Part shown: positions 1-6,000 of the stretch, in pieces
Layout of the letters: each line of letters opens with the position of its first letter
How positions within the stretch are numbered: the first letter of the stretch is position 1
Origin: Escherichia coli
GTDB taxonomy: Bacteria; Pseudomonadota; Gammaproteobacteria; Enterobacterales; Enterobacteriaceae
Length of the DNA stretch: 64,000 nucleotides
Direction: 5' to 3' (one strand)
Assembly (NCBI RefSeq): GCF_003790525.1
Contig: NZ_CP033635.1
Program-made: the position numbers

Positions 1-3000
1 TTAATTAGCGGGCAATTGTACCCTGGTTAAGCCTCGGGTGGCAGCATCAGGTCTTGTATGGAAAAGCATATCTTTGTAAAGCGGAGGTAATTGCGGGTCT
101 AAGCTATGGGCAAACCGCAGCAAGTGGCGAGCGAGTTAATGTTTGCGTAGTGAAATATATAGGAATTGATTTAAATCACATTAACCAGGATTCACAGTGC
201 AACTTCTAAATTAATCCAGATCAATAAAGGGTGAATTATCATATATAATGTGATCTGTGTAGGATCATTTGTTACTCCAATGTGGGTATATTCGTCACGT
301 TTTTATAACCATAACGACGGAGCGGATATGAAAAAGTTAACAGTGGCGGCTTTGGCAGTAACAACTCTTCTCTCTGGCAGTGCCTATGCGCATGAAGCAG
401 GCGAATTTTTTATGCGTGCAGGGTCTGCAACCGTACGTCCAACAGAAGGTGCTGGTGGTACGTTAGGAAGTCTGGGTGGATTCAGCGTGACCAATAACAC
501 GCAACTGGGCCTGACGTTTACTTATATGGCGACCGACAACATTGGTGTGGAATTACTGGCTGCGACGCCGTTCCGCCATAAAATCGGCACCCGGGCGACC
601 GGCGATATTGCAACCGTTCATCATCTGCCGCCAACACTGATGGCGCAGTGGTATTTTGGTGATGCCAGCAGCAAATTCCGTCCTTACGTTGGGGCAGGTA
701 TTAACTACACCACCTTCTTTGATAATGGATTTAACGATCATGGCAAAGAGGCGGGGCTTTCCGATCTCAGTCTGAAAGATTCCTGGGGAGCTGCCGGGCA
801 GGTGGGGGTTGATTATCTGATTAACCGTGACTGGTTGGTTAACATGTCAGTGTGGTACATGGATATCGACACCACCGCCAGCTATAAATTTAATGGAACC
901 CCCGTGAAAGACGCGGTACGACTGGATCCGTGGGTGTTTATGTTCTCTGCCGGATACCGCTTCTAATTTTCTCTGCAAAACCTCTGCAAAACTCTTCTGC
1001 AAAACTGGTTATCAAATAACCAGTTTTTTCCACTCTTTACCGCGTGCGTCGTTGTAAATATCGGTCATTTTTTGATTCGAATGGCCCAGCAAAATTTTGG
1101 TATCAATTCCCTGTTCTCTGAACAATCGTTCTGATAAAGATCTTTGCTCATGGAAAGAGGGTGGCGTGCCATTAGCACGCCAGTTGTAATCCACAGAATC
1201 CCGGGCTTTTTTAAATGCGACTGTTAATGTTGCTGGTTTAACCATCCCGCCGCGCTTACCCATCCCCTTAGCGTGATGATGGTGCAATAACCACGGACTA
1301 AGGATGTAATCACGACAGGATGACACCACGTCACCCAGGGTAAGATTTAATTTGTCGCAACGCAGAGCCAGAGGAATGGCTATCCGGGCTCCTGTTTTTT
1401 GCTGTTCGACATGAAGGTAACCATCCCGGATATCCGAAAACTGCATTTTGCAAATATCCGAAAGACGCTGGCCCGTCATCAGTGCCAGCAGCATGCCGCG
1501 CTGTAAAAAGTAACCATCCTTTTCCGCTGCGTTATAAATCATCATCCACTCATCAAAAGTCAGTCGCTGTCTTGATATCCGCACTTGCGGTTTTTTTGCC
1601 GATTCAGCCGGGTTAAAGCCTGGCGGAACATCACCAGTTTGTTGAGCCTCCCGGAAAACATCGATCAATACCTTCCTGAAAATTTGTCCCATTCTGTTAT
1701 GTCCCTTTGCCTTGTATTCTTCCAGCACCGATACCACATCTTTTACGGTTATGGCATCTAGCGGCCTGGCTCCAAAACGTTCATCAAACACCCTGAGAGG
1801 AGCCGCTTTTTGCTTCAGCGTGCTGAGTTTGATCTCTCCGTTCTCATATCTTTCCTGTTGAATTTTTCTGTAATTATTCAGAAAAATGGAAACGGTTGAT
1901 GCGCCGCCGGTATCACTAATAATTTTCTCCTGCAGACTGAGCATTTGCTCCATTTGTTGTCTGGCAAGACGGCTGTTCGCTTCTGCTGAAATGGTTTCCG
2001 CCAGTTTCTGGTCAATACTGCCGAGTCCATGATTTTTACCTGTGATGGGATTCCTGTAACGCCAGTAAACTTTGTTATTTCTTTTGTCAAAATACGGAGA
2101 TAAACCCGGAACATCGGTTTTATATTTTCTCGGGCGCGCCATCTTCCAGTATCCTCTTCAAAGCAGGGTGATCTGTGGCGATCACCTCCGGCTTGTTTAC
2201 CATTCCGACAAAGCGAGCGCGTGGATCCACTCGCCAGTGCCTTCCTACTTTTTTGGGGAGAGGAAATATCATTCCGGCTTTAGCGTATTTACTTAACGTA
2301 CCCGGAGTAGGGACTGGTTCACTGAATTCCTCTTTTGCCCACTCAGTGAGCAGAATAAGTCTTGCCATGAGCGTCGTTCGCTAATCATGGTCGCCGCCAC
2401 TATAGCCGGTGGGCGACGACCGGGGTTGAACATTAAAAATCAGCCTGATTCGGGATCAGTTTTTGTATAGTGGCTGTTACGTATTTTGCCTGGTGAAGAG
2501 CGTCATCCAGAGCATTATGGCGCACGCCTTCGAATGGAATTACGCTTCTGGCATTGAAGTCTGTGATTTTCCCCATCTCAACGATTGTGCGTACATCACG
2601 ATCGTTGCTGTAATGCCACGGACAGGGGATGTCCAGACGTTCGTATGAGGTGCGCAAAATTGCGTTATCGAACGTTGCGCCATTACCCCACACCTGAACG
2701 AATTTTTCATCAGAGTGTTCATTGACGAATTCCCGAAAACGCAAAAGGGCATCTTTCATTTTTACCTGGTCAGTTAAAATGGCAGCTCTGGCTTCGCTGG
2801 ACTGCTTCAGCCACCATTCGATGGTGCCACCATCAGGAACAGCCCCTGTATTCATTGCGTCAGTCAGGCTGATAACGATATAAAATACCGGCCCGATTTC
2901 CCCTGTTTCCGGGTCGAAGAAAACCGCACCAATAACTACTATGGGTGCATTGGTGTTGGCTCCCATTGTTTCAAGGTCGACTGACAGGTGATTCCATACT

Positions 3001-6000
3001 CTGCTGGTGGATGTGATTTCACGATGACCGTTCATCTTAATTAAGGAATTTTCTGTTTCGCCAGTTTTATTATCGCTGGCGTGGCCCTGAGCGCCGCCAG
3101 TGTTCTCCTTGTGCGGATGCTCAGTGCCTTCCGTTTCCTCCGGATTTTTTTCCTGAGATTCAGCCTGATTTTCTCCATTGAATGTTTCCTGGTATGTTGC
3201 GTCACCCATTACTGAGCCACAATCAGGGCAGTTGCCGCCGCTGGTCTGACCGCAGGCGGTGCAGACTTTTTCCGGTTCCTGTTGCGCTACTGGCTCAGGT
3301 TGTTTCGTTTCTGGCTCGTTTTGTAACGCATTTTGGCTGTTTTGTTCCGCTTTCTGGTCGTTCTGTTCCGTTTCTTGCTGGTTCTGGTTCACTGAATCGC
3401 GAGTCTGGACTCCCTTAACCCATTTCAGATCATTCGGGTCGCTAATCCCTTCAACGAACTCACCACGCGAGGCCGCCAGTAATTTGTCTGCATCGACAGG
3501 ATTTTTGGGCGGAATGTTTTTCCTAGCTTCATGGAGTTCTGCCCGCAGTTTCTGATATTTCGCATCAACAGAATTCACCTGCGGCTGAGCATCCAGCGGC
3601 TGCGTGTCCGGATGATGTTCAGTTGTATCCGGTTCCACTGTTTCAGTCGTTGGCTGTTCATCTGCCATTGCGCCAGACGGTTGCGGTTTTTCTTCATCAT
3701 CCTGTTTTCCTTCTTCTGTTACACGCTGCGGCATTGGGGCAGAGGAACGACCGCAGGCAATATCCACGATTTCCGGATCAGGGTTGGCATGATCGGTTTC
3801 GGTCAGCACTTTATTCAGGTATTCGGTGACGCGCTGGGGCATAGCCTCTATACCAACCGGTGCTTCTTTCACGGAGGCAACCACGATGGCGCGGGAATAA
3901 TCCATCCCGCCTGGCATGTTCAGAAAAGCCTTAAGGAAGACGGAGAAACAGGGATCATTTTCTGCGATAATTTCGTTAACACGTCTGGTATGTGAAGGAT
4001 GCATGTTGTAAATATCCACATCCATCGAACGAGCCAGTTTTCCTGTAGCAACATCGAATGCCATTGACGCATTATCATGCACAAAACCTTCGCCGCGATC
4101 GGTAAGGATACCGCCGCCAGCGTTAGCGCCGGATGGTGTGCGACTGATGCGAGAAACACGATTTCCTTTCATCCACTCTTTTGTAAGCAGACCACGATCA
4201 GTGTAGTCAGCGTCCAGGTATGCTTCGATGAAGGAGGTCATCAGTCCCAGGTCTGAATTTACGGGGGCGGGAAAAACTTTGTCAGTGTCCCGCACCAGTT
4301 TGTACAAATCCCGAATCTCCAGCGGTTCGAGTTGCGCTGCTTTATTTGAGATGGCCAGCGCGGTAACGGCGGGAAGTTTTTCTTCCTGTGCGTTATGTAA
4401 TGAGCGCAGTTCATCCCGCGAAACGTGCGTTACTGGTTTTTCGCCGCCGTGTTGCGCCAGCCAGCGAACAGGCAGAATCTGACCTGAAACCGGCAGAAGC
4501 ATATTCTCCTCAATCTCAGTCATGTCTTCGCCATTAACATTGGTGTTGTCAGTGCTGGCTGGTTTGTCCTGCGCGGATGGCGGGGGCGCGATAAATATCA
4601 TTGTGATGCCATCTTCGCCGCCTTTTTCATACCGGTTACAGAATTCGGTATCAAACACGCCTTCCGGTGGAAGGTCATCAACAACGGGCAAATGGACGCG
4701 AACAGGTTTTTTAAAGTCGTCTTCATCATAATCGTTATCATCCATTGCGGTAATACAGCGGGAGATGGCAACAGATAATTTTTTTGCTGTAGTCCAGTAA
4801 AAACCACCTTTAATCCCAAGGCGTTTTCTGACTTTGTCATTTTTAGCTTCGCAATATAGCGCAAAAGTTTCTTTATCAGTGCTCATTGATAAACCTCATT
4901 GCTGTTTTAAGGTTGTGCGAATCCCTGCCATTGCTGGCATATGAGAATCGACCCTTATGTATTTATTAAGCTGAATGTCGTATTGGGTCAGTTATTTATT
5001 ACAGCTCACCATGCCTCCGCCTTTACAGGTAAACCATCACGACCGAGGAAGACTTTAATCATGCGGTCAGTAATGCATGTTTTTGTAGTGAAATCACGGA
5101 TATAAAGTTTTTGCTTTTCGATATTGTTTGCCGATGCAACATATGTCCGGCCTTCGTAAATAACGTAATCGCCGGGAGTGACGCACTGGCGTGGTATTTC
5201 ATCGGTTCCGAAGTGATGAGCAATCATAATAATCTCCTTAATAATTTGTGATATGAAGGAAATTCCAGAAAACTATTTAATACTCAGCAACTGCTCGACG
5301 GTCATATTTTTAATTGCGCCCCGGTTTATGAGAGTCCATCCCTGCTTTTCCAGATAAAAACGGAAAGTATCCAGAGTACAGACCAGTGCGCCATCAGGAA
5401 CGGTTTCGGTGAATTTGATGTAGCCGTGTTCGTCGAAGCGGATAACCAGGGTGTGGTCATCACCCGGGATTATTTTGTCAGCGGGTGTGGTGTTATTCCG
5501 GCGCAGTTCTTCCTCCATGCGGTCGAACTCGGCAATGTAGGCTTCCTTGAATGCAGCGGCTTTTTTGCCGGTGAAGCCCATCACCAGGAAAACGAAGCCG
5601 TTTTTGGTGATTTGGTAGGCATTGTAGGTATTGCCACGGTGCTCGAATTTAACCCGCGAAAAGTTGCTGGTTAAAAAGCGTTCAGAACATTCGAGGGCTT
5701 CTATTTTTTGAACAACATGGTGATGCTGCTTGCCGAAGAATTCTGCGATCGCAATAGACGTAGTGACAGCGCGACCATTTTCAATGGTTACGTCAGGGTG
5801 AGAAAGGGTAGTAGCCATGATGGCATCCTCAAGTGTTAAGTTAATTAACTCACCACCGAGGCTTTCCACGACCATAAGGGTGGCGAGACGTACAGGGGTG
5901 GAAATACCGGTCACTCGAGAACCCGGCCAGCCTTGCAGCTGCCCTGCACGCCCCACCATTATCTGAATGTGGCTGTGCTTAACGCATAAAAAAACCGCTT

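Follow-up and report, generated by a model that had tools for sequence, protein, structure and literature searches.

Positions 2433 to 4886 (minus strand) of a 64,000-nucleotide (nt) stretch of Escherichia coli DNA (contig NZ_CP033635.1, hereafter the window) hold one intact open reading frame (ORF) of 817 amino acids (aa), with its stop codon within these coordinates. RefSeq lists an identical protein with the same ends, WP_097733765.1, as 'exonuclease'. Homology searches with both halves of the protein show it to be, as far as its sequence tells, a natural domain swap. The N-terminal region of RecE is kept, and the PD-(D/E)XK 5'-3' nuclease domain is replaced by a DEDDh domain of the DexA/Rv2179c type. 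On balance, we lean towards the view that the protein is an annealase-independent exonuclease acting on DNA ends, built on a RecE-type scaffold. Its gene occupies the recombination slot of a lambdoid, Rac-like prophage.

A sequence-only reading of the window had described the N-terminal ~600 residues as uncharacterised. This is correct for their function, since the N-terminal domain of RecE was still given as 'of unknown function' in a 2023 review, which assigns the PD-(D/E)XK 5'-3' nuclease domain to RecE residues 564-866 (PMC11611040). It is not correct for their homology. Residues 1-616 match positions 1-602 of the 877 positions of the NCBIfam RecE equivalog model NF007259. In BLASTP against a K-12-type RecE of 866 aa from a Rac prophage, residues 58-616 align with RecE residues 50-591 at 70% identity. 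The domain search of the N-terminal region, which that reading had proposed, thus matched NF007259 as well as Pfam PF06630 (Exonuc_VIII; aa 57-189, E-value 2.9e-26), so the region is not without relatives. The Cys4 motif and both linkers discussed below fall within the RecE-homologous part. By homology, the N-terminal ~600 aa are the long-known, functionally unexplained front end of RecE and not an orphan. No BLASTP alignment was obtained past RecE residue 591, and the PD-(D/E)XK domain of RecE is absent from the 817-aa protein. The NF007259 score of 1027.9 bits lies below the curated cutoff of 1269, and no end-to-end alignment to one well-characterised exonuclease family was seen. In standard recombineering, the first ~600 residues of RecE are dispensable, and they boost linear-linear recombination.

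The C-terminal part is of different origin. The sequence-only reading had restricted the likeness to DEDDh exonucleases to the last ~200 aa, and the searches place it in the last ~190. The match to Pfam PF16473 (Rv2179c-like 3'-5' exoribonuclease domain) spans aa 632-805 and takes in model positions 1-175 of 177 (E-value 3.9e-66). In a multiple alignment, residues D637, E639, D740, H790, and D795 align with D7, E9, D119, H186, and D191 of T4 DexA. Sequence searches brought up a single solved relative, PDB 8kel/8ken (E-value 1.7e-9 for 8kel). Entry 8kel was identified as T4 DexA both by matching its sequence to 'exonuclease A, DexA' of a T4-like genome and from the structure paper (PMC12153337). 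Because the closest characterised relatives, DexA and its E. coli homologue EcD, act on DNA, we infer 3'-5' exonuclease activity of the C-terminal domain on DNA ends. In one divergent protein with the same architecture, P0147 (L007:5001-7259), the catalytic Glu has become Lys (VDLKTMG) and the second catalytic Asp has become Ala (SFANVIL). P0147, a lone metagenome sequence, is full-length and, by these substitutions, probably nuclease-dead.

The joint between the two parts can be located closely. Homology to RecE stops at residue 616. In the alignment with the free-standing exonucleases of phages mEpX2 and mEp460, to which the DEDDh domain is 54% and 59% identical, respectively, their Met1 falls at W631. 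The fusion junction therefore consists of 14 residues, aa 617-630. It appears from these alignments that a whole free-standing exonuclease gene was joined in frame to the RecE N-terminal region and its linker.

The C-termini of the 150 best representatives of this N-terminal region were classified. A PD-(D/E)XK domain was found in 20 and a DEDDh domain in 14, and the remaining 116 showed neither, being fragments or having other C-termini. Seven full-length proteins among these 116 (P0148, P0128, P0176, P0190, P0212, P0248, and P0187; loci L012-L014) share a third C-terminal domain, PHROG 7838 within PHROG 2489. This domain contains the motif KKSLTDAxKKALSxLGF, which is reminiscent of Rad52. 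Pfam Rad52_Rad22 gave sub-threshold matches in five of the seven members, and the homologues include proteins named 'Rad52/Rad22 family DNA repair protein' by NCBI. A sequence search of the PDB with the profile of this domain returned nothing significant. Its AlphaFold2 (AF2) model has a predicted local distance difference test score (pLDDT) of 89.7, and the top eight Foldseek matches in the PDB are all the N-terminal domain of human RAD52 (E-value ~1e-6, probability 1.00). On the basis of the model, the third C-terminal domain is a Rad52-type single-strand annealing fold. PHROGs call it 'exonuclease', probably by association only.

The three classes also differ in the genes that follow. The PD-(D/E)XK (RecE-type) genes are immediately followed by recT in four of four loci, and a gene of the Sipho_Gp157 family follows the Rad52-type genes in two of two. 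Directly after the DEDDh-type genes come xis or DUF4224 and, next, int; none of the ten loci examined has an annealase gene there. These loci cover the window, its equivalents in both prophages of E. coli TUM1886, O157:H7, N39, phage 689R5, and five divergent relatives with ~24-37% identity in the N-terminal 392 aa. In the window, neither recT nor another annealase gene lies between the exonuclease gene and xis. Searches with RecT, Erf, and SSB by tblastn across the 64 kb gave nothing at an E-value below 0.8, the best RecT match having an E-value of 9.3, and homologues of Abc2 and RacC were not found in the window. PHROG scans of eight ORFs of the early region detected no annealase, and none is listed in the RefSeq annotation of a near-identical locus. 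The earlier remark that no Bet/RecT/Erf-like gene is visible nearby is thus correct, and the missing annealase is a consistent property of the DEDDh-type architecture. In the divergent DEDDh-type loci L005, L007, L022, and L023, a gene of the Rrf2 family (PF02082; 108-116 aa) lies immediately upstream, at the place where the E. coli loci have kil or DUF1482. The free-standing homologue of phage mEpX2 is located inside a Kil-Erf-SSB-exonuclease-Abc2 module upstream of xis/int, which supports a link of the exonuclease to recombination.

The gene is mosaic at the sub-domain scale, its sub-domains differing in their closest relatives. The N-terminal module (aa 1 to ~110) is 91-98% identical to the DEDDh-type homologue of O157 and 27-34% identical to K-12 RecE, whereas for residues 191-392 the identity is 81% with RecE and 52% with the O157 protein. 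Judged from such comparisons, the module of aa 1-100 is swappable. The helical core at aa 191-392 is the part most widely conserved across the family. No informative solved structural relative of the N-terminal fold was found. YdfE_N and YdfE_C are alternative N-terminal modules of other family members and are absent from the 817-aa protein. K-12 YdfE, a pseudogene of the Qin prophage, was considered as a truncated homologue and rejected, as BLASTP showed no similarity.

Acidic and Gln-rich low-complexity sequence had been noticed before, and it corresponds to the linkers at aa 393-440 and aa 501-541 (Table 1). Between them lies the sole basic segment of the protein, aa 441-500. It includes a 21-residue peptide (aa 468-488; positions 3423-3485) that is nearly invariant inside an otherwise disordered linker, with a ratio of non-synonymous to synonymous substitution rates (dN/dS) of ~0.10. 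The peptide recurs in the linkers of PD-(D/E)XK, DEDDh, and Rad52-type fusion members and may be a short partner-binding motif.

The Cys4 motif is present as described, formed by C542, C545, C553, and C556 in CxxC-(x)n-CxxC spacing. The sequence of K-12 RecE at this position is CNACGQTGGDNCPDC, and the motif in RecE is also given as CNACGQTGGDNCPDCG. Of 120 close homologue clusters, 106 keep all four Cys residues, and 14 have Tyr or Ser at one of the four positions. Among the 150 divergent representatives, just six have the motif, which sits within the disordered linker. We take it to be a knuckle with putative metal binding that is specific to this lineage and whose importance is uncertain. 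Because it is also not strictly kept, the function of the protein is unlikely to centre on it.

Selection was assessed by pairwise Nei-Gojobori comparisons with the O157:H7 homologue and with phage vB_EcoS-689R5. The dN/dS values were 0.06-0.35 in each folded segment, including 0.23-0.24 in the DEDDh domain, and 0.5-0.7 in the linkers. Purifying selection acts on the folded segments. Of 5426 complete E. coli genomes, 1017 contain DNA relatives that cover 80% or more of the gene; at the same cover, relatives were found in 7 of 50,697 records of isolated phage genomes. The 90%-identity protein cluster containing the N-terminal region has 973 members. The family is very common in prophages of pathogenic and commensal E. 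coli, including several prophages of O157:H7.

We propose the following course of events. Once the prophage is derepressed, its early leftward promoter would drive the exonuclease gene along with kil, xis, and int. The C-terminal DEDDh domain would then remove nucleotides from DNA 3' ends, and the N-terminal region would act as a scaffold or targeting module that is independent of the attached effector. This role is suggested by sister N-termini that carry a 5'-3' nuclease, a 3'-5' nuclease or a Rad52-fold annealase, and by the specific enhancement of linear-linear recombination by full-length RecE. Phage or host DNA ends might thereby be processed during lytic development without a phage annealase. 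Candidate end-points are host-dependent recombination or repair of phage DNA, trimming or blunting of ends, and degradation of competing DNA. A bolder version, which we consider unlikely, takes the RecE-type N-terminal region as a portable 'recombination hub' of enterobacterial prophages that delivers any effector to one common target, for example DNA ends or a host factor. The DEDDh version would then belong to an undescribed annealase-independent pathway. Such a protein could hold two ends together while its 3'-5' nuclease trims them, which would be consistent with the specific effect of full-length RecE on linear-linear recombination.

Several points weigh against an annealase-independent exonuclease in a recombination slot. 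A classical pro-recombination role is not obvious, because annealases and RecA use the 3' tails that a 3'-5' exonuclease would destroy. The scaffold idea is drawn from fusion patterns only, and the searchable literature contains no experiment on this protein or its architecture. The alterations of P0147 at two catalytic positions suggest that nuclease activity may not always be needed. Free-standing homologues other than that of mEpX2 lie beside P2-type replication genes, Dam or RdgC, and such varied neighbours point to a general early function of the family in DNA metabolism. An RNA substrate is also possible for the DEDDh domain, as the founding member Rv2179c is an exoribonuclease by its Pfam name. 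Extended to the whole protein, this would make it a 3'-5' exoribonuclease that acts like Rv2179c on the 3' ends of transcripts, primers or R-loops, in keeping with the family name '3'-5' exoribonuclease Rv2179c-like domain' used by Pfam and RefSeq. We regard an RNA-directed enzyme as improbable. T4 DexA, the only solved relative by sequence, is a DNA exonuclease, the E. coli homologue EcD acts on DNA, and both the fusion partner and the genomic slot belong to DNA recombination enzymes.

Among the DNA-directed alternatives, the properties of EcD suggest a prophage defence nuclease of the 'HREX' type, which would degrade the 5-hydroxymethylcytosine (5hmC)-containing DNA of T-even phages and spare host DNA, with the N-terminus as a sensor or regulator. 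EcD is a free-standing E. coli homologue of DexA that digests T4 DNA with 5hmC, leaves unmodified double-stranded DNA undigested at 25 °C, and gives cells protection from T4 even when its expression is only leaky (Kang et al. 2025; PMC12153337). The DEDDh domain studied here is in the same family, and the gene is far commoner in E. coli chromosomes than in phage records. However, DexA residues W152 and D169, which recognise 5hmC, align with S760 and I774, in an alignment of 27% identity that might be shifted by a few residues; in relatives the former position is occupied by W, Y or V and the latter by A, S or T. The tetramer-forming residue D90 of DexA is Ala in EcD, a loss that marks the EcD-like dimer, and it is retained here as D712, the comparison with EcD (HAK9828821.1) being made through DexA numbering only. 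Moreover, the gene is part of the early leftward operon, which is repressed, and shows no evident separate promoter, and the PADLOC defence-system models gave no match. Defence of this type therefore seems quite unlikely. A counter-defence or take-over nuclease is rather unlikely too. It would destroy nucleic acids with free 3' ends, such as retron multicopy single-stranded DNA (msDNA), primers, linear plasmids or the DNA of competitor phages. In vivo, retron msDNA is degraded by RecE itself, which has been described as an anti-restriction function, and racC beside recE acts as a retron toxin blocker (bioRxiv 10.1101/2020.06.22.160242). The absence of an annealase from all ten DEDDh-type loci and the established role of T4 DexA in host-DNA scavenging (PMC12153337) would also suit such an enzyme. 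But the window has no racC homologue, degradation of msDNA triggers the described retron instead of blocking it, and the sister fusions of the N-terminus to an annealase would be left unexplained. Finally, the gene might be a functionless mosaic relic, an accidental in-frame fusion that lost the RecE nuclease domain and recT and is now drifting. The extensive sub-domain mosaicism, the Cys4 motif with one Cys gone in some close clusters, and the defects of many such prophages, for example the frameshifted integrases in TUM1886 and N39, fit this explanation. It is already disfavoured, and we consider it very improbable, because of the low dN/dS in all folded segments including the DEDDh domain, the relatives in 1017 complete genomes, and the 973-member cluster. 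In addition, the ORFs are intact, all catalytic residues are kept, and the architecture is retained in relatives that are ~24-37% identical over the N-terminal 392 aa.

The ORF calls and the RefSeq annotation of the near-identical locus indicate that the window holds a Rac-like lambdoid prophage at ompW. Its leftward early operon runs in the order repressor, Rha-family regulator, kil, the 817-aa exonuclease gene, xis, and int (Table 1). Between kil and the exonuclease gene, consensus matches to a separate promoter or terminator were no commoner than in shuffled sequence.

Table 1. Features of the exonuclease gene and its neighbours, in window coordinates
Feature	Coordinates	Strand	Remarks
Whole gene, RecE-type N-terminal region and DEDDh domain, 817 aa	2433..4886	-	
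Shine-Dalgarno sequence GAGG	4894..4897	-	7 nt before the ATG at 4886; read from the sequence
aa 1-100, small alpha/beta domain	4587..4886	-	AF2 pLDDT 85 in the first 10-residue block, 94-98 in the other nine
aa 57-189, Pfam PF06630 match	4320..4718	-	aa 105-180 modelled at low confidence
aa 191-392, helical core with Gly-rich loop	3711..4316	-	pLDDT of 10-residue blocks 84-98 (91-98 from aa 211)
aa 393-440, acidic disordered linker	3567..3710	-	isoelectric point (pI) 4.05; pLDDT <50; dN/dS ~0.65-0.70
aa 441-500, predicted helix followed by conserved peptide	3387..3566	-	pI 8.3; dN/dS ~0.10
aa 501-541, Gln/Asn/Glu/Pro-rich low-complexity linker	3264..3386	-	68% Q+N+E+P; 14-residue indel relative to RecE
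aa 542-556, Cys4 knuckle	3219..3263	-	
aa 557-630, acidic linker	2997..3218	-	RecE homology stops at aa 616 (RecE 591)
aa 631-817, predicted DEDDh 3'-5' exonuclease domain (PF16473, DexA/Rv2179c-like)	2436..2996	-	
kil (KilR-like FtsZ inhibitor), upstream neighbour	5006..5227	-	same leftward early operon
Excisionase (xis), downstream neighbour	2120..2368	-	
Integrase	1012..2142	-	prophage end adjoining ompW

The upstream neighbour kil belongs to PHROG 294 (Kil septation inhibitor). RefSeq calls it 'cell division protein FtsZ' at the near-identical locus, which is a misnomer because Kil inhibits FtsZ. E. coli TUM1886 (NZ_CP128970.1) carries the 817-aa exonuclease in a prophage at ompW and again in a different prophage at tRNA-Ser/mtfA (L001 and L003). 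Besides the identical exonuclease, the two have identical kil and near-identical Rha genes, which points to a recent exchange of DNA between the co-resident prophages.

Other features of the prophage were observed in passing. A near-perfect palindrome of 37 nt (TACCCATGGGTATTTACTTTTTGGATACCCATGGGTA, 16-bp stem) at 7064-7100, followed by a T-rich run, lies just 3' of a repressor-like gene (7145-7606, minus strand) and could be a terminator or an operator-like site. A small ORF at 6535-6741 (plus strand), annotated as 'ECs_2282 family putative zinc-binding protein', has two CxxC pairs (CPECG...CKNCG) and runs against the leftward early operon. According to the RefSeq annotation of the near-identical TUM1886 locus, a RelE/ParE-ParD toxin-antitoxin pair is located inside a nin-like region (~13034-13597, minus strand), and tRNA-Ile and tRNA-Arg genes (~17181-17334, plus strand) lie downstream of the Q antiterminator. 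The G+C content is 0.54-0.60 in the late (structural) region at 24001-40000 and 0.46-0.51 in the early region, a contrast consistent with a mosaic prophage.

Taken together, the observations of the sequence-only reading are confirmed, and its interpretation is partly supported. The combination of PF06630 and PF16473 is already abundant in databases under generic names, and we found no paper on this architecture, on the consistent lack of RecT, or on the Rad52-type sister fusion. Prophage domain shuffling itself would not astonish a specialist. RecE/RecT is a workhorse of recombineering and direct cloning, and the front end of RecE appears here to be reused with a nuclease of predicted opposite polarity and no RecT, or with a Rad52-like annealase. 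The three-way fusion pattern makes the question of the RecE N-terminus comparative and testable, namely what the three fusions have in common. The activity of the family could matter for prophage mosaicism or induction. It could also matter for phage-phage conflict, because a free-standing homologue has recently been reported as an anti-T4 nuclease.

Among known systems, the closest is RecE of the K-12 Rac prophage (866 aa; NF007259, PF06630). Both proteins contain the core, the acidic linker, the (D/E)GISDPND peptide, the Cys4 motif, and the second linker, and both genes occupy the slot between kil and xis/int in a Rac-like early leftward operon. In contrast to RecE, the protein has a DEDDh domain in place of the PD-(D/E)XK 5'-3' nuclease, so the opposite polarity would be expected. 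Over its first ~110 aa it represents a different allele, 27-34% identical to that of RecE, and no recT, ralR or rcbA follows the gene. With T4 DexA and the PF16473 family it shares a full-length Pfam match and five aligned catalytic residues, although the identity to DexA is ~27% and the extra loops of DexA are missing. DexA is a free-standing protein of 227 aa, whereas the DEDDh domain here is fused to an N-terminal region of ~630 aa. The C-terminal domain is more similar to the exonucleases of mEpX2 (XSB41207.1) and mEp460 (mEp460_026), at 54-59% identity. These free-standing phage exonucleases and EcD consist of ~180-190 aa, unlike the present protein with its preceding RecE-type region, and the Erf, SSB, and Abc2 genes that accompany the mEpX2 exonuclease have no counterpart in the window. 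The Rad52-type sister fusions (for example P0148 of Salmonella, 814 aa; PHROG 2489/7838) share with it the N-terminal and central regions, the linker peptide, and the same prophage slot upstream of the integrase. They differ in ending with a predicted Rad52-like annealing fold, followed by a Sipho_Gp157-family gene, where the protein described here ends with a putative nuclease.

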